Assembly: GCA_938001965.1 (NCBI GenBank)
Contig: CALLBC010000062.1
Coordinates: forward strand, 1 to 61,162
Direction of reading: 5' to 3'
DNA: 61,162 bases
Origin: an uncultured Bdellovibrionales bacterium
GTDB taxonomy: Bacteria; Bdellovibrionota; Bdellovibrionia; Bdellovibrionales; UBA1609
Of the stretch, positions 2,976-57,092 are shown piece by piece (the stretch's first letter is position 1; the number at the start of each line of letters is the position of its first letter). The position numbers and the translations under genes were made by a program. Under the pieces are notes generated by a model. The model was not told where the DNA came from, did not search any database, and worked only from the letters and a program-made list of their open reading frames with translations.

Positions 2976-3876
2976 CTTTAAAGCTGGATTTGTAGGTGTT
3001 GTTGGAATTCCTAATATGGGTAAAAGTAGTTTGGTAAATCAGCTCATTGGTGAAAAGGTAGGTATTGTATCTGATAAGCCGCAAACAACAAGAAAGAGCG
3101 TTGTTGGCATATTTAGTAATCATGAAATGCAGGCCTTATTTGTAGATGCACCTGGCTTTATTAAAGCTGATAAGGGTTTAAATAAATTTTTGCAAGATGA
3201 AGCGGGAAGTGTGACTGATAAGTCTGATGTGTTAATGCTGTTACTGACTACTGAAGGTCATAATACTAAAACTGCACAGCGAGCCCTTGAAGAGGTGAGT
3301 AAAAAAAATAAACCTTGGTTTGTTGTGATTAATAAGATGGATACAAACCAAACTCATCGAGTTTTAATTTTAGAAGAGCTAATTAAGAAGTACAATGTGC
3401 CTGTCATTAGGCATAGTACTAAAGACCCTATGTTTGATCAGAGTGCAGAAATATTAGCTCATATCAAAAGTATTTTACCTAAATCACCAGGACCTCTTTA
3501 CGATACGGAGAGTTTTACTACTAGCCTTACTCGAGATTGGGTGTCTGAAGTTATTAGAGAAAAGTGCTTTGAGTTACTGCATCAAGAGATCCCATTTAAT
3601 GTTGCTGTTCAAGTTCAAAAATATCAAGAGTCTACGCCTAACTCTTGTGTAAAAATATACTCAGATATTATTGTGACCAAAAAAAATCATTGCCCAATGA
3701 TCATTGGTAAAAAAGGCCAAATGATTAAGGAAATTGGCATGAAGGCGAGAAAAGAAATTGAAGATCTTTTAGGTGAAAAAGTTTACTTAGAGTTATTTAC
3801 TAAAGTGAAGCCATCGTGGCTGAGTGATAACAGAATGTTAAAGGAGCTAGGCTATGTGGTCGAGAAAGACAGCTAA
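2965..3876 (+). CDS. era: GTPase Era
   Basis: G1 GIPNMGKSS, G3 DAPG, G4 NKMD, and a C-terminal KH domain (IIGKKGQMIKEIG). Overlaps the rnc 3' end by 11 nt, in the classical rnc-era order. Confidence 0.95.
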   Translation: MENNFKAGFVGVVGIPNMGKSSLVNQLIGEKVGIVSDKPQTTRKSVVGIFSNHEMQALFVDAPGFIKADKGLNKFLQDEAGSVTDKSDVLMLLLTTEGHNTKTAQRALEEVSKKNKPWFVVINKMDTNQTHRVLILEELIKKYNVPVIRHSTKDPMFDQSAEILAHIKSILPKSPGPLYDTESFTTSLTRDWVSEVIREKCFELLHQEIPFNVAVQVQKYQESTPNSCVKIYSDIIVTKKNHCPMIIGKKGQMIKEIGMKARKEIEDLLGEKVYLELFTKVKPSWLSDNRMLKELGYVVEKDS

Positions 3877-5182
3877 TACTCCCAAAGTGGCTATTATAGG
3901 CCGTCCTAATGTTGGCAAATCAACATTGTTTAATATTTTAACTCGTACAAGAAAATCAGTTGTTAAAGATGAAGCTGGAGTTACTCGCGATATACAAATT
4001 GAGCCCACTGAGTGGTGGGGTAAAAAATTTGATGTTGTAGATACCGGAGGGCTTACAGAAGCTAAGGATGAATTCTCTGTATTAATTAAGGAAAATTTAC
4101 TTTCCCTTATTGATGATTTTGACTCTTTGGTTGTGGTCATGGATGGTAAATCGGGGCTAGTGCCTGAGGACCGCCTGTTGGTGCGTTTGGCCAATGAAAG
4201 CGGTAAGCCTTTTTTGCTCGTAGTGAATAAAGTAGACCAAATGCATAAGAGTGACTTAATTTTAAGTGAGTTTTATGAGTTTGGTCAGGAAGTGATTGCC
4301 ACTTCTTTTGAGCGCAGAGATAATGTCGATGAAGTTGTTGAGTGGATTATTAAAAATGTGGAAGAGCCAAAACACACAGAAAGAGAAGGTCTGCGCATTG
4401 CCATAGTTGGTAAGCCCAATGTTGGTAAGAGCTCTTTGTGTAATTATCTTTTAGGTAAAAAAAGAATGTTGGTTTCCAATATTGCCGGCACAACGGTTGA
4501 TGCCATTGAAGATAGCTTTAGTTATAATGATAATAAGTTTATAATTGTTGATACCGCTGGGCTAAGGAGACAGGCCAAGCGTAATGATGGTGTAGAGTTT
4601 TTGTCTGCAATTAAGTCTCATAAAGCCATAGATAACTCTGATATTGTTTTGTTAATGGTTGATGGGCAAGAAGGGCCAACAAAGCAAGATGCCCATGTTG
4701 TGGAGTACATATTAAGTAAGCATAAAGCAGTTATTATGGTTGCTAATAAAGTTGATTTGGCAAAAAAGAAAATTCCAGCATTCAGAAAATGGTTTAAAGA
4801 AACTACAGTTAAAGAATTTCACTTTTTTAAAGATATTCCTATTGCCTTTACCTGTGCAAACACCGGAACTGGGGTTAATCAGTTATTAGATCAAATTATA
4901 CTGACGTGGGATCGTTTAAATATAAAGATACCAACCTCTCAATTAAATAAATTCTTTTACGATGTTATCAGGCAGGCACCCAGTCCTGTTTACGCGACTA
5001 AGAATGTGAAGTTTTATTATTTGACTCAAACTGAGCAAGTGCCGCCAAGCTTTATTGCTTTTGCAAATCAGCCAGATGGGGTGACTCCGTCTTATCGAAG
5101 GTTTTTATCAAACCGAATTAAAAAGAACTGGGACTTAGCCGGTCTTCCAGTGAGAATATTTGTTATGAAGAGTGGGCGTTGA
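3854..5182 (+). CDS. der: Ribosome-associated GTPase Der/EngA (tandem GTPase domains)
   Basis: Two P-loops (GRPNVGKST and GKPNVGKSS), two DTAG/DTGG and NKVD motifs, and a KH-like C-terminus. Overlaps era by 23 nt. Confidence 0.95.
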   Translation: MWSRKTANTPKVAIIGRPNVGKSTLFNILTRTRKSVVKDEAGVTRDIQIEPTEWWGKKFDVVDTGGLTEAKDEFSVLIKENLLSLIDDFDSLVVVMDGKSGLVPEDRLLVRLANESGKPFLLVVNKVDQMHKSDLILSEFYEFGQEVIATSFERRDNVDEVVEWIIKNVEEPKHTEREGLRIAIVGKPNVGKSSLCNYLLGKKRMLVSNIAGTTVDAIEDSFSYNDNKFIIVDTAGLRRQAKRNDGVEFLSAIKSHKAIDNSDIVLLMVDGQEGPTKQDAHVVEYILSKHKAVIMVANKVDLAKKKIPAFRKWFKETTVKEFHFFKDIPIAFTCANTGTGVNQLLDQIILTWDRLNIKIPTSQLNKFFYDVIRQAPSPVYATKNVKFYYLTQTEQVPPSFIAFANQPDGVTPSYRRFLSNRIKKNWDLAGLPVRIFVMKSGR

Positions 5183-6582
5183 AAGAAAACAGTAAGACAA
5201 CAGGTTCATTATGGAGTACGCGGCTTGGGATTTACCTGGCTGCAGTGGGCTCGGCTGTTGGTTTAGGTAACATCTGGAGATTTCCGTTTGTAGTGTCTGA
5301 AAACGGTGGTGGAGCCTTTGTACTAATTTATATCTTTTTAGGCCTCGTTGTTGGTGTTCCATTGTTAATTTGTGAGCTCATGCTTGGGCGCTTAACTAGA
5401 AAAGGAATCCTAGTTGGAACAAAAGAGATCTTGAGTTCGGCAAATTCCATTAATAAACCAGTTTGGTTAAGAACTATAGTTAAAATGGGCAGTTGTTTAA
5501 TGATGATTGTTGCCTTTTTAATGTTAGCTTACCTAACTTTAATTAGTTCTTGGGTCTTATATTTCTTATTACAATTTATTAAAAGCCTATTTGTTGAACT
5601 ACCAATGCCAGTGGGTGAGTTAATGGTGGTTTTAAAATCAAGCTTTTTAGGACAGAGTCTACTTTTGTGCTCCATAATGGTGATTGTAATCATGGTTATT
5701 GTGAGAGGAGGAGAAAGTATTTTTGAAAAGTGGGTGAGTTACCTAGTGCCTTTGTTTTCAATATTACTTGTAGTTCTTGCTGCGAAATCACTGTCTCTGG
5801 ATGTTTCTACAGAGGCTGTTAAGTATTTTTTATATCCTGATTTCTCTAAACTAAGTTTTTCCTCTGTGGGGTATGCTTTAGGGCATATATTCTTTACTTT
5901 AAGTGTTGGTCTTGGTCTTACAGTGAGTTTTGGTCGTTTTCTGAGTCCTAAAACAAATATCCCCTTAACTGGGTTTAGGGTGGCCGCTATTGACTCAACA
6001 GTGTCAATATTTGCAGGTCTTCTTGTGTTCCCATTAGTAATTAGTGGATTGTATGGTGTCGCTGATACTAGTGGTCCCTCCCTGGTTTTTGATACTGTTC
6101 CAAACTTTTTATATAAAATTGAAAATGGTAAAATATTTGGTTGTTTATTGTTTTTATGTCTATTTATATCTGCCATTGGAGCTTGTATTGGACTTTTACA
6201 CACTCTGGTTACTAATATTAAAGAGGCAAAAAAGTCAGACCATATTAAAACTACATGGGCCTGTGGGGTAGTGGGTGTACTTTTGTCTTTGATTCCCACT
6301 TTATTTTTTTCAAGGCTAAATAATATATACTTCTTTGAAAAATCATTATTTGAGCTTTTTGATATAGTACTAGTAAATATTTTATTACCAATCTCCTGCA
6401 TGATCGTGTTAATGATGGTTTATTTCTTTATTGATCATCAGACTAAAAAATCAGAATTTTTCGGTGAGAATAATTTAATTGATAAGCATACCTACTCTCA
6501 ATGGATGTTTGCGCTAAAGTATTTGATACCTGTTATTTATATATTCACATATGGTTCAATAGTTTTAAGTTGGATTTTATAG
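5179..6582 (+). CDS. Sodium-dependent transporter, NSS (SNF) family
   Basis: N-terminal W-STRLGIYLAAVGSAVGLGNIWRFPF motif typical of neurotransmitter:sodium symporters, with about 11-12 hydrophobic segments. The TTG start overlaps the der TGA stop (TTGA). No in-frame ATG precedes the conserved motif. Confidence 0.85.
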   Translation: MKENSKTTGSLWSTRLGIYLAAVGSAVGLGNIWRFPFVVSENGGGAFVLIYIFLGLVVGVPLLICELMLGRLTRKGILVGTKEILSSANSINKPVWLRTIVKMGSCLMMIVAFLMLAYLTLISSWVLYFLLQFIKSLFVELPMPVGELMVVLKSSFLGQSLLLCSIMVIVIMVIVRGGESIFEKWVSYLVPLFSILLVVLAAKSLSLDVSTEAVKYFLYPDFSKLSFSSVGYALGHIFFTLSVGLGLTVSFGRFLSPKTNIPLTGFRVAAIDSTVSIFAGLLVFPLVISGLYGVADTSGPSLVFDTVPNFLYKIENGKIFGCLLFLCLFISAIGACIGLLHTLVTNIKEAKKSDHIKTTWACGVVGVLLSLIPTLFFSRLNNIYFFEKSLFELFDIVLVNILLPISCMIVLMMVYFFIDHQTKKSEFFGENNLIDKHTYSQWMFALKYLIPVIYIFTYGSIVLSWIL

Positions 6583-6635
6583 AAAAAAACCATACAAATA
6601 TGGGCTTTTGTAATAAACTTTTTCCTATTAAAGTA

Positions 6636-25062: not shown

Positions 25063-25875
25063 ATGAAAAATTTCGTACTAAAAACAGTAATATTCGCATT
25101 ATTCATTGTTATGATAATTTTCTTATCACAACAACCTGCTCATAACGAAGAGCAGGCCAAAAAGGTTTCACAAGGTCTGACTCAGTCTCTTAAGAGTGCA
25201 CAAAATGAACTCTTGTTGGTTTTGGGGGATGATTCAACACTAAAAAAAGAAATCAAAGATTTAAAGCTAGCCTATACAGGCTGTAAAGGCTCAAACACAG
25301 ATTTATTACCGGACTTTTTATATAATAAAGAAACGGGTTTAGTTGAAATTTGTAATGTGACATTACTAAATAGAACTACTGATTTTCCTCAGCGTTTAGT
25401 GTATGAGTTTTTTACTGATCACCAATTATGTATGAACTCGCCAAACGATACGGTAGAGAGAATATGTAATGATCGTGACAGAGATCAGCGTTATGCAGTG
25501 AATAGAGTATTAGCTAGTCATGATAAAAAAAGCACAAACCTTTTAACACTAAATGTAGATTATGGTGATAGAAGCAGTGTGTTTATGGTAATGACGGGGA
25601 ATCAATCTAAATTGGCCTATAAAACTAGTTATGGCGCCGAAGCACTACTTCAGTTAGAAGAGGAAGATATTACTTACTTAAAGAATCAGCTCACTAAAAT
25701 TGACAGAAAGTTTTCTAAGCCTAAGTGTGACCGCCGAGTGATTAAATTATTTGCTCTAAATGATAGGGGACAAAGGTTTAGGTCTTATGCCTGTATTGAG
25801 GCCATTAGCAAACATACACAAAAGTTATTAAAGCTGGCTAGAACTGTGAGTTCTTTCACTAAGAACACTTTCTAA
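25063..25875 (+). CDS. Hypothetical membrane-anchored/exported protein (270 aa)
   Basis: N-terminal hydrophobic segment (FVLKTVIFALFIVMIIFL) and several Cys. No recognised motif. Confidence 0.6.
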   Translation: MKNFVLKTVIFALFIVMIIFLSQQPAHNEEQAKKVSQGLTQSLKSAQNELLLVLGDDSTLKKEIKDLKLAYTGCKGSNTDLLPDFLYNKETGLVEICNVTLLNRTTDFPQRLVYEFFTDHQLCMNSPNDTVERICNDRDRDQRYAVNRVLASHDKKSTNLLTLNVDYGDRSSVFMVMTGNQSKLAYKTSYGAEALLQLEEEDITYLKNQLTKIDRKFSKPKCDRRVIKLFALNDRGQRFRSYACIEAISKHTQKLLKLARTVSSFTKNTF

Positions 25876-25879
25876 GAGT

Positions 25880-26064
25880 CCAAATCTCTGAATAAATATT
25901 TAAAAAATTTCCCCTTTCCTTTTGATTGAGTGCGCTTACGGCAGCATCGCGTCTTCGCGCTTTGTCACCTTTGCAGGTGAACACAGCGCGGATACGCGAA
26001 GCGCGACGCGATACTCAAGCAAAAGGAAAGGGGAAATTTTTTAAATATTTATTCAGAGATTTGG
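25880..26064. repeat. Foldback element, copy A (52-nt arms, 81-nt GC-rich core)
   Basis: 25880-25931 is the reverse complement of 26013-26064 with 1 mismatch in 52. The core 25932-26012 is 72/81 identical to 47231-47311. Starts 5 nt after the stop codon at 25873-25875. Confidence 0.85.
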
Positions 26065-26094
26065 GTAAGTAAAACTGATTCGAAAAAAGCTTTA

Positions 26095-26216
26095 CTAGCT
26101 TAGCTTTCTTCTGTGAAGCCTTATCTAAAACGAGTTCGGAGCGCAAAGGGCAAAGCCCCCTGAGCACCGTATGTCTGAGGCTTTAGATAAGGCTTCACAG
26201 AAGAAGGTTAAGCTAG
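26095..26216. repeat. Second long hairpin (35-nt arms, 52-nt loop), unrelated in sequence to the foldback family
   Basis: 26095-26129 (ctagcttagctttcttctgtgaagccttatctaaa) pairs with 26182-26216, with 2 mismatches in 35. The loop contains a gggc-aaa-gccc mini-hairpin. Confidence 0.75.
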
Positions 26217-37124: not shown

Positions 37125-37514
37125 TTCCACTCACATTTATTTTTTTAGGTAGGTATTGCTCGCACGCAGTTCCGTTAACAAGGGGCTGTCCGTAGTGTAG
37201 CTTCTATGTACTAAGGTTATTTAAGTACGAGTAGTTATGCTACCGAGCCTTCCATTCACACTTTGTTTTGGGGTAGGTATTGCTCGCACGCAGTTCCGTT
37301 AACGAGGGGCTGTCTGTAGTGTAGCTTCTACGTATTAAGGTTATTTGTGTGCGAATAGTTGTGCTACCGAGCCTTTCACTCACACTTTGTTTTGGGATAG
37401 GTATTGTTCGCACGCAGTTCCGTTAACGAGGGGCTGCACGAAGTGTAGCTCCCGCGTTACCACGGCTGTTTGAGTACGAGCAATACCTACCCCAAAACAA
37501 AGTGTGAGTGGAAG
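37125..37514. repeat. Three tandem ~125-nt units closed by a 37-nt inverted arm
   Basis: Units run 37125-37249, 37250-37373, and 37374 onward. Units 1 and 2 are roughly 85-90% identical. Unit 3 keeps the first ~70 nt, then diverges and ends in 37477-37513, the reverse complement of the unit 5' arm (37374-37410). Confidence 0.85.
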
Positions 37515-37953
37515 GCGAGGACCCTTTTTGGGACTAGGCACTTACACCATTTAGTGATTTTTGCCCCATTCTCAACAAAATATGTTATAAAAATATGCAT
37601 TCCCGCCCCCTATATTGGCTTTCAAGCCCAGCATAACTCGCTGCAATATAATTTTTTTTTAGTTTTTTGTGACGAAATTTGGGACCAAAAGTCGAGGCTA
37701 ATTCAATTTTTTTTAGAGCCTTTAGGCGCCCGAGTTTGGTCCATAGATGTGGAAAATACCAAGACAAATTACTTACATAAACCCGACTTATTAAGTGTAT
37801 AAAGTTAATTTTTTAACCCTTAAATCCAGTCTAGTTTGGAGGAAGAGCCAGGAAACTACTTGCGACAAAACCAAAATCCTGTCAGACTTTTATAGAGTCG
37901 GGCAATGGAGTCCAAACGTATTTATTAACCATAGGATTTGGGAGGGAGCAAGG

Positions 37954-40903: not shown

Positions 40904-42283
40904 TTAAATCTCAGCAATCTCGCCAGTGCTGTCGCCAAATTTTGCAATGTTAACGCCATAACGTTTCATAATGGTTAACCATAAGTTAGTGAGTGGTTGC
41001 TTTTTATTACTAGTAATACCAGTTTTAATACGACCATTGGCGCCACCAGCAAGTGCAAAAAATAAATTGTCTGCCATATGATGTGGTCCCTTGCTTTGGC
41101 AGCTGCCGTGTACAAGTAGTGTTTTGTCTAATAAACTTTTACCTGTTGGGTCTTTGCGAGCTTCCATTTTTAAAGCAAATTCAGCAAAGTTTTTAGTGTG
41201 CCACCTATTTATGAGTTTGAAGTCATGAGCGTTATGAGCCAGATCTGAGCTGTTGCCTTGGTAAGCCTCACCTTTAAGCTCTCCATCAGTATGTGTGGCC
41301 GTGTTGTAATGGGAGAGTCCATGCCATATGTTATTGCCACTTTTAAAGCCAGTCATCCAACTGTGTTTTAGTGTGCTTGAGGGCATAGCTCGCATAATAC
41401 TACTGTTATAAGTCAGTTCACACTCATGGGCTAATATTTTTAACTCCTGCATAATATCTAGTCGTTCTTTATAAGTTGTAGAGACATAAGCATCCAGGTC
41501 TTTGTTTAGTTGTGGGTCAATTTTGCACTCAGCACTGACTTGTTCTAAGTTTGCAATACTTCTTTCCACTTCGCGAATACTTGTAAAGTACTGATCAAGT
41601 TTTAATTTGTCTGCGGTACTCACTCTTCTGTTGAGAGACATAATCCCATCTTTAACCACATCAAGCACACTTAATAGGCCGGGCTTAGATGTATTATTGT
41701 TGTTATTTGAATCAAAAGCAAAAAGCTTATTATATAGATCCTTGGTGCTAAAGTAATAGGGGATTGGTTTGCCAGGGCCTTGCCACGAAAATACACGGAA
41801 AGGTAAGCCATGGTTAGGGCTAGTGTGCATATTTATATTAAAAGATCTTATGGGAGCATTTTTAGCGCTAGCGTGAGCATCCACTAAATATTGGTCAAAG
41901 GTTTTAGTAAAAGCAGCATGGCTTTCTGAAGGGCGAATTTTTTCAAAGCCCGTCACTCTAAAAGCTTGTCCACGGGTGAAAGAAAGAAAGTTTTCCATAT
42001 GTGGGTGAGCAAGAGGTGTGTGACGGTAAGGATTGTTTAGCTTTGCAAAATAGCTATATTTACTTCCAAGAATTTTTAACTCATCAATCATATGGTCTGG
42101 TGTGAAGTTGTTATCTTCTTCGGCATAGAATCCATTAGGAAAAAAATCAAAGATAAAGTGTGGGGTGCTTTGAGCTGCGTATGCATTTTTGTTGAGGATC
42201 ATAACATCAAGTGCTGGCAGAGCAAGCGTATAGCCCATGCCTTTTAGGAAAGTTCGTCTGTCTAGATGCCATTTTTTTTTCAT
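40904..42283 (-). CDS. DUF1552-family protein with twin-arginine signal
   Basis: MKKKWHLDRRTFLKGMGYTLALPALDVM is the typical DUF1552 Tat-like N-terminus. Lies directly downstream of its usual DUF1588-type partner. Confidence 0.75.
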   Translation of the reverse strand: MKKKWHLDRRTFLKGMGYTLALPALDVMILNKNAYAAQSTPHFIFDFFPNGFYAEEDNNFTPDHMIDELKILGSKYSYFAKLNNPYRHTPLAHPHMENFLSFTRGQAFRVTGFEKIRPSESHAAFTKTFDQYLVDAHASAKNAPIRSFNINMHTSPNHGLPFRVFSWQGPGKPIPYYFSTKDLYNKLFAFDSNNNNNTSKPGLLSVLDVVKDGIMSLNRRVSTADKLKLDQYFTSIREVERSIANLEQVSAECKIDPQLNKDLDAYVSTTYKERLDIMQELKILAHECELTYNSSIMRAMPSSTLKHSWMTGFKSGNNIWHGLSHYNTATHTDGELKGEAYQGNSSDLAHNAHDFKLINRWHTKNFAEFALKMEARKDPTGKSLLDKTLLVHGSCQSKGPHHMADNLFFALAGGANGRIKTGITSNKKQPLTNLWLTIMKRYGVNIAKFGDSTGEIAEI

Positions 42284-46454: not shown

Positions 46455-47171
46455 ATGAAAGTTATAATAAGTTTGTTGTTAATAGGGATGTTTTATACCG
46501 CTGGGGCTTTTGCTGAGGAAGTGACTGTGGGTAAGGTGAGTAAATCTGGTAAAAAGGCTGTTATATACATTCCTGAGGGAATGACTGTGGAGACGGGCCA
46601 AACATTAGTGATTGGCGGTGGAGAAAGTAAGGGGCAAGTGATGTTGCCTTCAGGAGTCTCTGCAAGAAACAAAGCTATTAGTGGAAATTTTAGCTTTTTT
46701 TCAGATACAGCAGAAACTACGATTGTTGGTCAAACCCCAGGATCAAGTGAACAAACCTCAATGGCTCTTGGACTAAATTATATTAAAAATAATGTAAATT
46801 TTGAGTTTGGTGGAGGCTTAACATACTCAAGTAGCTCAACCACAACGAAGAAAGATAGTTCTTATGGGTTGTCTGGTTTGTTTGAGTATAACTTTATGCC
46901 CAATAAACCAGGCACAACTGTGGTTGCTCATATAGGGGGAGAGCTGGGTTATGCTAGCGGCTCCAGTGAGACTAATACAGGCAGTAAGGATGAGAACTCA
47001 GGGTTAAAGTATGGAGTGTATGGCGGTGTTAAGTACTTTATGTTTCCAGCAAGTGGTTTTGCAATACAGGCTGATCTTGTTTATTTAATTGATAATTCTT
47101 TATCTCAGGATAACATCGATATTTCTGTTTCTAGGCTAGGGTTAAGAGCTGGAGTAAGATACTACTTCTAA
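46455..47171 (+). CDS. Outer-membrane beta-barrel protein
   Basis: Signal peptide ...YTAGAFA, Gly/Ser/Tyr-rich alternating strands, C-terminal GVRYYF. Confidence 0.65.
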   Translation: MKVIISLLLIGMFYTAGAFAEEVTVGKVSKSGKKAVIYIPEGMTVETGQTLVIGGGESKGQVMLPSGVSARNKAISGNFSFFSDTAETTIVGQTPGSSEQTSMALGLNYIKNNVNFEFGGGLTYSSSSTTTKKDSSYGLSGLFEYNFMPNKPGTTVVAHIGGELGYASGSSETNTGSKDENSGLKYGVYGGVKYFMFPASGFAIQADLVYLIDNSLSQDNIDISVSRLGLRAGVRYYF

Positions 47172-47179
47172 TTCAATTT

Positions 47180-47362
47180 CAATGCTCTGAATAAATATTC
47201 TTAATAATTTTCTTCAACTGTTACTAGAGTGCGCTTACGGCAGCATCCCGTCTTCGCACTCTATCACCCTTACGGGTGAGCACAGCGCGGATACGCGAAG
47301 CGCGACACGATACTCTAGAAAAAGTTGAAGCAAATTTTTAAAAATATTTATTCAGAAATTTG
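47180..47362. repeat. Foldback element, copy B
   Basis: Core 47231-47311 is 72/81 identical to copy A. The termini share ctctgaataaatatt. The arms are imperfectly self-complementary (~85% by eye). Begins ~9 nt after the stop at 47169-47171. Confidence 0.8.
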
Positions 47363-47376
47363 GATATTTTAATTAG

Positions 47377-47405
47377 ATAAAAAAAGCCACATACCCGGTA
47401 TGTGG
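47377..47405 (-). terminator. Rho-independent terminator for the 47437..48186 gene
   Basis: On the minus strand: gccacata-ccggg-tatgtggc followed by a run of T (the plus-strand A run at 47377-47384). Confidence 0.7.
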
Positions 47406-47436
47406 CTTCAAGTGAAAGGCTTTTAAAATTTAATGA

Positions 47437-48186
47437 TTAGTTGTTGCTAGTTGGGTTTGGGTTAAGAGCAGCATCAACTTTATCAAAACGAGCTAATAAA
47501 GAACCAGGTATTTTTACAGTTCTATCTTCAACAGACTTAGCTAACTTCTTAGCATCGTCAAATCGATTAGCTTCAATTAACATGTCCATATAAGCTTCTG
47601 TAACAGTTACTTGAAGTACATCTGGCTTTGAAGCTAGGATAGACTCAAAGTAGTCCACAGCAGCATCTGTGTTACCTTGCTTAGATAAAACTTTAGCAAA
47701 GTAATAAGCCGTCATTAAGTCTTCACCTTGATTAGTAAAGTAAGCACTTAAAGTTTCGTGAGCTTGCTCATAGTTTTCTAATTGATAATGTAATTTTCCT
47801 AATTTTTTAAGAACTTCTAGGTTGTTTGGATTGGCAGATAACTGCTCCTCTAATGATGACTGTACACAATCAATCATTTTTCTTTCTAAACAAATTTCTT
47901 GTAAACGGTTGTAGTTACTTTCGTCACCCATACCAACTGAGATCATTGCTTTATGTGGAATAACTTCTAATGAGTGGTTGCCCCAACGAACACTGTGTAA
48001 GAATGAGCCTGCAGTAATTACAGAGATACCTAGCATAATTAATATACTACTGCGATTTCTTTTTTTAGTACTAAGCTCTTCAGCGTTTGAATCCATATGC
48101 CCGCAGTGATTACAAATTACTGGTTTATATAGTAAGCGATCTTCGCTAATTTCTGATTTACATTTAGGACACGTTCCGTAGGTCAT
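47437..48186 (-). CDS. Zinc-ribbon / single-TM / TPR-repeat protein
   Basis: CPKC...CNHC N-terminal zinc ribbon, TM segment SILIMLGISVITAGSFL, and a C-terminal TPR-like region (NLEVLKKLGKLHYQLENYEQAHETL...). Confidence 0.6.
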   Translation of the reverse strand: MTYGTCPKCKSEISEDRLLYKPVICNHCGHMDSNAEELSTKKRNRSSILIMLGISVITAGSFLHSVRWGNHSLEVIPHKAMISVGMGDESNYNRLQEICLERKMIDCVQSSLEEQLSANPNNLEVLKKLGKLHYQLENYEQAHETLSAYFTNQGEDLMTAYYFAKVLSKQGNTDAAVDYFESILASKPDVLQVTVTEAYMDMLIEANRFDDAKKLAKSVEDRTVKIPGSLLARFDKVDAALNPNPTSNN

Positions 48187-55132: not shown

Positions 55133-55421
55133 AACCTACTGCCGAGCGTTAATATTTAAGAAATTGTCAGTGTCACAATACCACCAGTAATCTGCCGAGA
55201 ATTAATAGAATTTAGTTACGCATAAATTAGTTTAAGATTTTACTTCATAAAATTTGTTGGAGCCAAACTGTCCCTAGAAATATTAAACAGCTTATCAAAA
55301 GTCTTCGCAAGATAAAGATCAATAGATATAAATAGTATGGATTGTAATAGTTTATAATAATTTTAAATCGATTTGGTTTAATTTTTTACGCTCGTTTACC
55401 GAGCGAGAGGGGAGAGTGAGA

Positions 55422-57092
55422 ATGGATAGTGAATCTAATCGTTTCATTAATAAAATTGCATATATATTTATTGCGACTTTATTTTTAGCAACAGCATTTA
55501 TTAGTACTGATGTGTATGCGGACAGTTCTGATGATAGTATAAAAATACTAAGAAATAGAGATCGTGGTGACCGTAACGATAGAAAAAAAGCTCGTGAAAA
55601 TAAAAGGCAAGAGCGTAGACAAGAACGCGCCCGTCCAGAGCGTCAAAGAAATCGTGACAGCGCCAGACAAGAGCGCCCAAGAAATCGTGACCGTGCTAGA
55701 CCAGAGCAACCAAGAAGAAACCCAGATAGAACAAGGCCAAATCGCCCAAGAAACCCAGATAGAACAAGACCAAATCGTCCAAGTAATCCAGATCGCACAA
55801 GACCAAATCGTCCAAGCAATCCAGATAGAACCAGGCCAAATCGCCCAAGAAATCCTGATCGCACAAGACCGAATCGTCCAAGCAACCCAGATAGAACAAG
55901 GCCAAACCGCCCAAGAAATCCGGATCGTACAAGACCTAATCGTCCAAGAAACCCTGACAGAGTTAGGCAAGAAAGACGACAAAGAGAAAGAGATCGTGTA
56001 GAGCGTGAGCAAAGACGTCGTCGTCAAGCTCGTCGTGCAGACCGATTAAGAGATCGTGATCGTAGACATCACAGACGTGTTAGTCGTGACAGATATAGGC
56101 AACACAGACGTTACCATAGATACCCTAGAAGAACGATTCGTCATCATCACAGATGGACTATTCGTTACAACAGATGGTGGAGAAATCATCACCGTTGGGG
56201 GCATCCAGGATGGCCGCATGACAGAATTCATTATCCTTCAAGATGGCCAAATACATCTGATAGATGGTCAGTTTATCAAATTATTAATGTGGCAGATAAC
56301 TTAGAAACTAAGTTTGAGCACATATATAATATGGTTGCAAACCAGTATGGAAGAAGTTCGTCCATAGCGACTAAAGCTTACGCGCTTTGGAGTGCTGCTC
56401 AAGTTTACAGTGATTGCGTAGAGTTTTATAATGGAAACTTACACTTCTCATTATATGAGCTTTATAACTTAGAAGAAGCAGCTTCTAACTTTGAAAGTGA
56501 ACTGAATAGATACGGTTCATCTTCAAGTGTTCATAGGCATTTCAATGTTGGTAAGTTCTTTATCAATGAACTGTTATGGCAGTACCGTCAGCAAATTGGT
56601 CATATCGATACGTGGAGAGATCAAATTAATGAAGGTGACAGTTGGAGACAAGACGCTAATGATGAGTGGGATGATGTAAATGATACTTATTCATCTAAAA
56701 GCTTTTACTTCTGGTGGACAAAGCCACATAGAGTTGCAACTTGGACACTTGATACACCAACCACTTTAAGCTCCATATCTCTTGAGGCGGTTAATACAAA
56801 TGGCCTCAGAGGTAAAAACGGAGTGGCTGGAATTAGCGAAATTTTACTGATCTATACTGATGGTAGTGAGTTAAATATTGTTAGTAGAAGTCATGAAAAG
56901 TACTCGCAAAGATCTGGGCAGTTAGTGTTGCGTGATCAAGGAGACTTCCTTGAAGTGTATAACCCTAATCCAAACTTAAAAGTTCGTGAGATTCAGATAA
57001 AAGCGGACTCTTGGGTAGCTCCTGAGGTGGATGTTGATATTCAAGTTAATATTAACTCTTATGAGTTAAACTCACTAAGAAACTTAAATTAA
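55422..57092 (+). CDS. Exported, extremely Arg-rich repeat protein with His/Trp/Arg-rich linker and globular C-terminal domain
   Basis: ATG 55422 is preceded by GGGGAG; GTG 55416 is the track start. Signal-like FINKIAYIFIATLFLATAFISTDVYA. 7 x NPDRTRPNRP(R/S). Then RRHHRRVSRDRYRQHRRYHRYPRR...WWRNHHRWGHPGWPH, followed by ~270 aa of ordinary composition. Confidence 0.75.
   Translation: MDSESNRFINKIAYIFIATLFLATAFISTDVYADSSDDSIKILRNRDRGDRNDRKKARENKRQERRQERARPERQRNRDSARQERPRNRDRARPEQPRRNPDRTRPNRPRNPDRTRPNRPSNPDRTRPNRPSNPDRTRPNRPRNPDRTRPNRPSNPDRTRPNRPRNPDRTRPNRPRNPDRVRQERRQRERDRVEREQRRRRQARRADRLRDRDRRHHRRVSRDRYRQHRRYHRYPRRTIRHHHRWTIRYNRWWRNHHRWGHPGWPHDRIHYPSRWPNTSDRWSVYQIINVADNLETKFEHIYNMVANQYGRSSSIATKAYALWSAAQVYSDCVEFYNGNLHFSLYELYNLEEAASNFESELNRYGSSSSVHRHFNVGKFFINELLWQYRQQIGHIDTWRDQINEGDSWRQDANDEWDDVNDTYSSKSFYFWWTKPHRVATWTLDTPTTLSSISLEAVNTNGLRGKNGVAGISEILLIYTDGSELNIVSRSHEKYSQRSGQLVLRDQGDFLEVYNPNPNLKVREIQIKADSWVAPEVDVDIQVNINSYELNSLRNLN
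55719..55949 (+). repeat. Seven in-frame 33-bp tandem repeats (coding), with a degenerate eighth unit to ~55982
   Basis: The units aac/aat cca/cct/ccg gat aga/cgc/cgt aca/acc agg/aga cca/ccg/cct aat/aac cgc/cgt cca aga/agt/agc were read directly. Only the last codon changes the amino acid (R/S). Confidence 0.9.

Follow-up and report, generated by a model that had tools for sequence, protein, structure and literature searches.

Whether the stem of a long hairpin is kept paired by slow, selected double substitutions or by one-step templated copying is an old question. It is raised here by two foldback elements, copies A and B, in a stretch of 61,162 nucleotides from an uncultured Bdellovibrionales bacterium, which was analysed over its whole length and is hereafter called the window. 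The window is ordinary, Bdellovibrionales-like chromosome with genes for RNase III, Era, Der, purine synthesis, MutS, Mpl, Ffh and S16, and the two copies are located 21 kb apart among housekeeping genes. In a sequence-only reading, the arms of copy B had been described as diverged from those of copy A but still self-complementary, and the multiple paired changes were taken to imply either that the long hairpin is selected or that some mechanism copies one of its arms onto the other. This view is supported by the present analysis, in which mirrored divergence of the arms was found to be general across 24 copies. Copies A and B are members of an undescribed repeat family, and the family is a MITE-type non-autonomous transposon with a 6-bp target-site duplication, which would be moved by a transposase acting in trans.

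All of the strings and coordinates previously quoted for copies A and B are present in the sequence, as are the complementary pieces of the arms (cccctttcc/ggaaagggg and ttgagt/actcaa; cttcaact/agttgaag and ctagagt/actctag). The inner 31 nt of the left arm, said to be about half identical between the copies, agree at 16 of 31 positions by direct count. Copy B, which had been placed at 47180-47362, is a real element with limits two bases wider on each side (Table 1). A repeat finder identified the arms of copy B at 47186-47230 and 47312-47356 (45 nt, 89% complementary, 81 nt between them) and those of copy A at 25880-25931 and 26013-26064 (52 nt, 98% complementary), and the two copies form a 206-nt direct repeat with 77% identity. 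The core of copy B was recovered with an nhmmer E-value of 1.9e-22 and copy A by the profile search with an E-value of 1.5e-24; direct comparison of the arms of copy A gave 1 mismatch in 46, while copy B is the most decayed complete copy seen among the 24. Predicted RNA folding energies are -119.3 kcal/mol for copy A (z -20) and -70.5 kcal/mol for copy B (z -8.7), with none of 200 shuffles as good in either case. The 21-mer core sequence GAGTGCGCTTACGGCAGCATC occurs twice in the window and was absent from 100 shuffles.

Table 1. Coordinates of the two copies and of associated sites in the window
Feature	Position	Strand	Remarks
Copy A, left target-site duplication	25873..25878	.	TAAGAG; holds the TAA stop of ORF 25063-25875
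Copy A, full element (187 bp)	25879..26065	+	arms 25879-25925 and 26019-26065; core 25926-26018
Copy A, right target-site duplication	26066..26071	.	TAAGTA; 4/6 identical to the left copy
Empty site	40904..40909	.	TTAAAT; overlaps the stop codon of minus-strand gene 40904-42283
Copy B, left target-site duplication	47172..47177	.	TTCAAT; decayed, with 2/6 positions shared with the right copy; termini set from the family consensus
Copy B, full element (187 bp)	47178-47364		
Copy B, left arm (47 nt)	47178..47224	+	terminus TTCAATGC, conserved TCTGAATAAATATT, then pyrimidine-rich variable inner part
Copy B, core	47225..47317	+	GC-rich; invariant blocks CGCTTACGGCAGCATC and GATACGCGAAGCGCGAC; long-apex variant TCACCCTTACGGGTGA
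Copy B, right arm (47 nt)	47318..47364	+	complementary to the left arm, with 5 mismatches over the inner 39 nt
Copy B, right target-site duplication	47365..47370	.	TATTTT
Intrinsic terminator of the TPR gene 47437-48186	47383..47409 (about 47381-47410)	-	outside copy B
Family termini			CCCAAATCTCTGG-type

Copy B is bordered on one side by the stop codon of the plus-strand gene 46455-47171 and on the other by the terminator of the minus-strand TPR gene; gene 46455-47171 gave no Pfam match and reads like an outer-membrane protein. Since the TPR gene has a terminator of its own, its termination is independent of copy B. At copy A, a low-depth contig (5.6 versus 39 in the source run) joins position 25875 straight to 25933 at a GAGT microhomology; it is a minor variant without the left arm of copy A and carries three nearby G-to-A differences. 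Other repeats were also observed in the window. A second, unrelated foldback at 26095-26216, 30 nt downstream of copy A, has 35-nt arms that are 94% complementary around a 52-nt GC-rich centre; it is without relatives among the fetched loci, and its contig depth is about twice that of the flank. The interval between a GlnD-like gene and a LuxR-type regulator contains three tandem 124-nt repeats that are 87-93% identical (37142-37516), after which comes a 46-nt stretch complementary, in inverted orientation, to the start of the repeat; these gave no Rfam match and had no relative in the fetched loci. Tandem repeats of 33 nt (11 codons) were found at 55627-56001 within ORF 55416-57092, which has no Pfam match.

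Further members of the family were collected by pattern and profile searches. A gapped core pattern identified 15 loci in three JGI metagenomes, and a relaxed pattern identified 8 loci in the MAG "uncultured Bdellovibrionales L4_Bin_METABAT__131_sub_1" among 185,579 species representatives. A profile search of all fetched sequences yielded 24 distinct full copies, one cut copy and one duplicate locus. The 24 full copies, from the window, the three JGI metagenomes and the one Bdellovibrionales MAG, all derive from metagenome assemblies and represent different loci with no flanking genes in common. An exact core 26-mer that included variable positions had no match in the GTDB representatives, whereas the gapped patterns did match. 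Relaxed-pattern matches in five GC-rich genomes (Gemmatimonadales, Burkholderia, Gaiellaceae, Vulcanimicrobiota and Ideonella) were attributed to chance because none of them fits the core profile. The family had no match in the viral contigs, plasmids and phages searched, and neither a tRNA nor a tmRNA origin of the element was detected.

The summed contig depth in the source metagenome was about 3000-4750 over the cores of copies A and B, as compared to 28-39 over unique flanks; for copy B alone the values were about 3000-3900 and 28-36. The high depth is confined to 25928-26016 in copy A and 47227-47315 in copy B, and the depth over the arms is far lower, which suggests about 100 copies with a common core and copy-specific arms. 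The suggested number of about 100 copies per genome is a depth ratio and could include related strains; it agrees with the presence of two copies in the 61 kb window. Loose contig ends from a second run revealed another copy, with flanks that are unrelated yet mutually complementary. A public short-read contig from the copy B locus (L030:3771-3823) stops within the core and has other bases than the window at two apical positions; it illustrates how the repeat breaks and blurs assemblies.

The element is 181-187 bp long and non-coding, and lacks a transposase gene; open reading frames that cross it are spurious and arise from reading through the repeat. The element forms a hairpin over its entire length, in which arms of 47 nt in most copies close a conserved GC-rich core of 87-93 nt, in a genome with 36% GC. 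Terminal inverted repeats with the consensus CCCAAATCTCTGGATAAAATTTAAATAAAATTC are present in inverted orientation at both ends. Within the arm, positions 1-8 form the terminus (consensus CCCAAATC), positions 9-33 are AT-rich and fairly conserved (TCTCTGGATAAAATTTAAATAAAATTC), and positions 34-47 are highly variable, being pyrimidine-rich on the left and purine-rich on the right. The core contains the invariant blocks CGCTTACGGCAGCATC and GATACGCGAAGCGCGAC and one of two apex variants, TCACCTTTCAGGTGA and TCACTTCGTGC. Cores are 98-99% identical among copies whose inner arms are only about 60% identical. Nested insertion of the core into pre-existing hairpins was considered and rejected, since arms and core always occur together at a fixed spacing.

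The helix in the core is invariant but for one pair, which is C-G in 14 copies and U-A in 9 and follows the apex variant. The apical double change from T25970-A25975 in copy A to C47269-G47274 in copy B was confirmed at these coordinates; family-wide, 11 copies have UA at this pair, 2 have CG and 3 are unpaired, and the change is real but statistically weak. A second helix previously drawn in the core, atcgcgtc/gacgcgat, does gain two mismatches in copy B as had been noted, but the helix itself is unsupported by the family alignment, which prefers another, invariant register (TCGCGT with ACGCGA). Judging from the aligned copies, the atcgcgtc/gacgcgat helix is probably not a real pairing.

Mismatches were counted within each copy by setting its left arm against its reverse-complemented right arm, and in most copies they number 0-3 per arm pair of 31-55 nt. 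In the 14 copies that could be compared without gaps, the identity at arm positions 1-13 was 0.79 within copies and 0.64 between copies, as compared to 0.98 and 0.80 at positions 14-30, and 0.97 and 0.59 at positions 31-47. Covariation was evident in a MAFFT alignment of 23 copies, where 47 of 64 pairs have changes on both sides (250 cells) and standard pairs account for 94.5% of the cells, against 32-51% in controls with slid partners; none of 500 shuffles reached any of the five covariation measures. Mirrored indels are few, with arms of 46/46 nt in three copies and of unequal length in four. Arm divergence is generally mirrored, and only a single degenerate arm was seen among the 24 copies. 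This only broken hairpin (L027:505-702) has an intact left arm and core and a right arm that matches over 12 nt only; its contig carries a second, diverged copy at 6383-6590 in the opposite orientation.

Evidence for mobility was obtained by anchoring the termini on the consensus and comparing the 6 nt immediately before the element with the 6 nt immediately after it. The 6-bp flanks share 72 of 114 identities, as compared to 43.0 +/- 4.7 for non-cognate flanks (z 6.2; 0/20000 permutations), and no duplication signal was obtained at 4, 5, 7 or 8 bp or with an inverted model. Perfect 6-bp duplications include TTGCAA, TAATTA and ATACTA. The target looks like TTNNAA, is AT-rich and often overlaps a stop codon. 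An earlier test, in which the boundary was set at the end of complementarity, gave no signal because palindromic target sites are absorbed into the arms with this boundary.

A filled site with an empty counterpart was identified by synteny. Six genes in the 34.8-42.3 kb part of the window have syntenic homologs with 67-90% amino-acid identity on another contig, from a close relative (L024), where a family copy flanked by TTATAA/TTACAA abuts the stop codon of a DUF1552 gene. At the corresponding place in the window, 1 nt separates the stop codons of the two convergent genes, and the site at 40904 is thus empty. The insert on the other contig amounts to about 490 nt in all, which are missing from the syntenic site in the window, and a tandem array of a different repeat (L024:4720-5024; the unit contains CCGTAATGAGCGTAGCGAATGTTAGGGCGATAGA) separates the end of the gene from the MITE. 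On a further contig (L001), the orthologous site of copy A is likewise without a copy. Together, the 6-bp duplication and the filled and empty sites identify the family as a MITE-type non-autonomous transposon. Copies at two different loci (L029 and L041) differ at only 1 of 47 arm positions, which indicates that the arms are inherited on transposition. Neither a transposase nor an autonomous element with the same termini was identified in the window (Pfam, 56 ORFs), and the fetched loci and GTDB representatives contained no autonomous partner or sites with terminal repeats only. Orthologous copies of one locus were not found, and the same-protein look-up matched the source sample alone.

The distribution of mismatches within the arms bears on what happens after insertion. 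In the 14 gap-free copies, mismatches number 2-8 per position at arm positions 1-8 and 0-1 at positions 14-45. Three copies (L016, L013 and L020) have duplications of 2/6 each, which is not above background, and only 0-1 mismatches in the inner 39 nt, with cores that are 98-99% identical to other copies. In these copies, either the inner arms were repaired or selected in place or the duplications were lost for another reason; absent duplications may have causes other than age.

The best reading, which we consider moderately probable, is that the family is a MITE with arms homogenised by hairpin-templated copying. In this model, a transposase acting in trans would make 6-bp staggered cuts at AT-rich, TTNNAA-like sites. 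After insertion, the arms would drift in sequence, with Watson-Crick complementarity kept mainly at the DNA level: the palindrome would fold during replication or repair and one arm would serve as template for the other, by quasipalindrome-type template switching or hairpin-directed repair, so that a new arm mutation would be removed or reproduced on the opposite arm in a single step. Copying would not reach the outermost 8 bp or the flanking duplication, which would decay; the outermost bases would escape because there is no homology beyond them for re-annealing. Templated copying would produce no wobble intermediates and abundant double changes of the transversion type, and would allow the inner arm to evolve as fast as unconstrained sequence and yet stay paired. 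Template switching is known to homogenise the arms of inverted repeats and can create compensatory changes in one step (PMC8794818, PMC8604942, PMC7202029). For the present family, templated copying is inferred from the comparison of copies rather than from an observed conversion event. Arm-to-arm copying leaves the conservation of the core unexplained, so that selection or conversion between copies must also act; the core may be kept constant through gene conversion between copies or because a protein recognises it, be it the transposase or a host factor. If selection acts on the core, it could maintain the stem too.

Selection on the stem could operate through transposition itself. If the hairpin were needed for mobility, with only perfectly folding single strands or cruciforms being recognised and copied, as proposed for REPINs with RAYT, complementarity would be selected along the lineages of active elements and not repaired in place. 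This would fit the inheritance of arms on transposition seen at the two loci with nearly identical arms, and also the conservation of the core and of the mid-arm, which is of the kind expected for recognition sites. The 6-bp duplication is, however, unlike the traces left by single-strand HUH/Y1 transposases; to our knowledge, IS200/IS605 elements and REPINs have no target-site duplication. Neither a RAYT nor a Y1 transposase was identified by Pfam in the sequences examined. The perfect inner arms of copies with decayed termini and no recognisable duplication also speak against this explanation, since they require maintenance after insertion. Compensatory changes in the spacer of REPIN hairpins have been described (PMC3116915), and on balance we regard selection through mobility as rather unlikely to account for the paired arms.

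Alternatively, the copies may be selected as RNA hairpins at the 3' end of the upstream mRNA, where they would act as an exonuclease stabiliser, an RNase III site or a terminator and compensatory substitutions would preserve RNA structure. A structured RNA is expected to show far more G·U than A·C on the transcribed strand. The arm-helix cells comprise 966 Watson-Crick pairs, 29 G·T, 29 A·C and 47 others, such that G·U is no commoner than A·C, and the alternative pair types include 38 of the transition type and 52 of the transversion type. Direct comparison of the arms gave about 6 mismatches of the G·T type, 9 of the A·C type and 12 of the transversion type, and these show no strand bias, even when sorted by the direction of the upstream gene. 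Both orientations occur: the ratio is 9 versus 4 in tandem gene contexts (non-significant), with 7 copies in convergent and 2 in divergent contexts, and two copies in opposite orientation were found on one contig. Orientation relative to GC skew is 15 versus 10 (non-significant), and a replication-strand bias of the kind seen in IS200/IS605 and REP was rejected on these numbers. The equal rarity of G·T and A·C together with the lack of orientation bias argues for maintenance at the DNA level, and from these mismatch counts the complementarity looks to be maintained in DNA and not as one RNA strand.

It is true that every copy is intergenic, that at least 10 of 25 copies have an end no more than about 20 nt from a stop codon and that only 2 of 22 copies are located between divergent genes, and such a role has been shown for REP, ERIC and similar repeats (review PMC3184786). 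The nearness to stop codons is accounted for by the target preference, since the target is TTNNAA/TAA-rich. No match to the element was obtained in Rfam at the gathering score, with only generic hairpin models (miRNA precursors) below the threshold, and the terminator search identified no terminator-like site in copy A or B and no U-tract after the stem. A search of RNA sequencing runs gave none that contains the locus. Selection of the copies as RNA hairpins is hence, in our view, unlikely.

It is also conceivable, albeit distinctly unlikely, that the copies have ceased to be purely selfish and are kept in place as domesticated, structure-defined DNA cruciform or hairpin sites, about 100 per genome, with a protein-bound apex and a stem free in sequence. 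If this were true, the 39-bp stem would have to be a perfect duplex with any sequence allowed, and the conservation of the core in old copies, the wobble-free pairing and the pyrimidine/purine asymmetry of the arms would all be covered. The host phylum is noted for unusual chromatin. Finally, a mobile core with arms arising anew at each insertion as an inverted duplication of local DNA, which the first look at read depth seemed to favour (core about 100-fold, arms far lower), is very improbable, being contradicted by arm homology across related genomes (80% identity between copies at positions 14-30) and a constant arm length of 47 nt, and at odds with a target duplication outside the arms and two loci with almost identical arms; fresh palindromic duplication, which would have spoken against the earlier reading, thus does not apply.

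With templated copying as the preferred reading, the family provides about 100 natural replicates per genome for the question of how stems are maintained, in a stem with a sequence that looks free to drift, and its mismatch spectrum can separate constraint at the DNA level from constraint at the RNA level. It is also the first described repeat family for an uncultured marine Bdellovibrionales lineage, and it explains the assembly breaks every 30 kb or so in the host lineage.

We compared the element to known repeat systems. It is shorter than about 400 bp and without a transposase, has terminal inverted repeats and a fixed-length duplication, and occurs as dispersed copies with filled and empty sites; of the features that define a MITE, only a known parent insertion sequence is missing. 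A structured non-coding RNA is not indicated, given the lack of an Rfam match, of G·U tolerance and of a fixed orientation, nor is an intrinsic terminator with a GC-rich stem and a U-tract, the only hit being the one outside copy B (Table 1). Retron, CRISPR and attC readings were ruled out on context, as no reverse transcriptase, array or integrase is present. The attC sites of integrons are likewise folded single-strand recombination sites conserved in structure rather than sequence, but the bases at the foot of their stem, with the R/L boxes, are conserved and the top is variable, whereas the top (apex) is conserved here; furthermore, they occur in cassette arrays beside an integrase, as opposed to dispersed copies with target duplications, and no integron integrase was identified in the window (Pfam).

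The hairpin MITEs, such as Correia/NEMIS in Neisseria, ERIC, Nezha and Chunjie (review PMC3184786), are similarly shorter than 200 bp and non-coding, with terminal inverted repeats, a target-site duplication, many dispersed intergenic copies and a very stable predicted hairpin. The hairpin of Chunjie, for example, has a predicted energy of about -98 to -130 kcal/mol (PMC3184786), as compared to -119 for copy A. In contrast to these MITEs, the inverted repeat of the present family takes in all of the arm as far as the core, which is conserved and GC-rich. Differences between copies have reached saturation in the inner arm, and still its mirroring is perfect; the duplication is 6 bp, without a known parent insertion sequence. 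The REPINs that are associated with RAYT (PMC3116915) are also high-copy hairpins that persist in a lineage and commonly show two-sided compensatory changes. Conservation is reversed in the two systems: the outer REP units are conserved and the central spacer is variable in REPINs (PMC3116915), whereas the centre is invariant and the inner arms vary here. Moreover, REPINs have no target duplication and go with a RAYT gene, while a 6-bp duplication is present here and no RAYT gene was identified in the 61 kb window (Pfam). The bcr1 element of the Bacillus cereus group (reviewed in PMC3184786) is a mobile element of about 155 bp with a 5 bp duplication and base-pair compensatory changes. It is transcribed, with the compensation read as RNA structure, and forms two stem-loops, unlike the single long hairpin without wobble tolerance described here.

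Quasipalindrome correction (PMC7202029, PMC8604942, PMC8794818) perfects imperfect inverted repeats and generates "compensatory" changes in one event, and template switching of this kind would account for arms that mirror each other in strict Watson-Crick fashion with no intervening wobble. It has been demonstrated on short repeats, with reporters and through ancestral reconstruction, as opposed to the long-term upkeep of about 100 mobile palindromes with 47-bp arms. Inversion of the spacer, a possible outcome of template switching, was not seen among the copies, 23 of 24 of which have the pyrimidine-rich left inner arm 5' of the core. That mobile hairpins differ between copies by compensatory changes has thus been reported before, in REPIN spacers (PMC3116915) and in bcr1 (PMC3184786), and the phenomenon is known in kind. 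The present family is distinctive in that it combines an invariant apex, an inner stem that is saturated but mirrored perfectly, and a spectrum of mismatches pointing to DNA.
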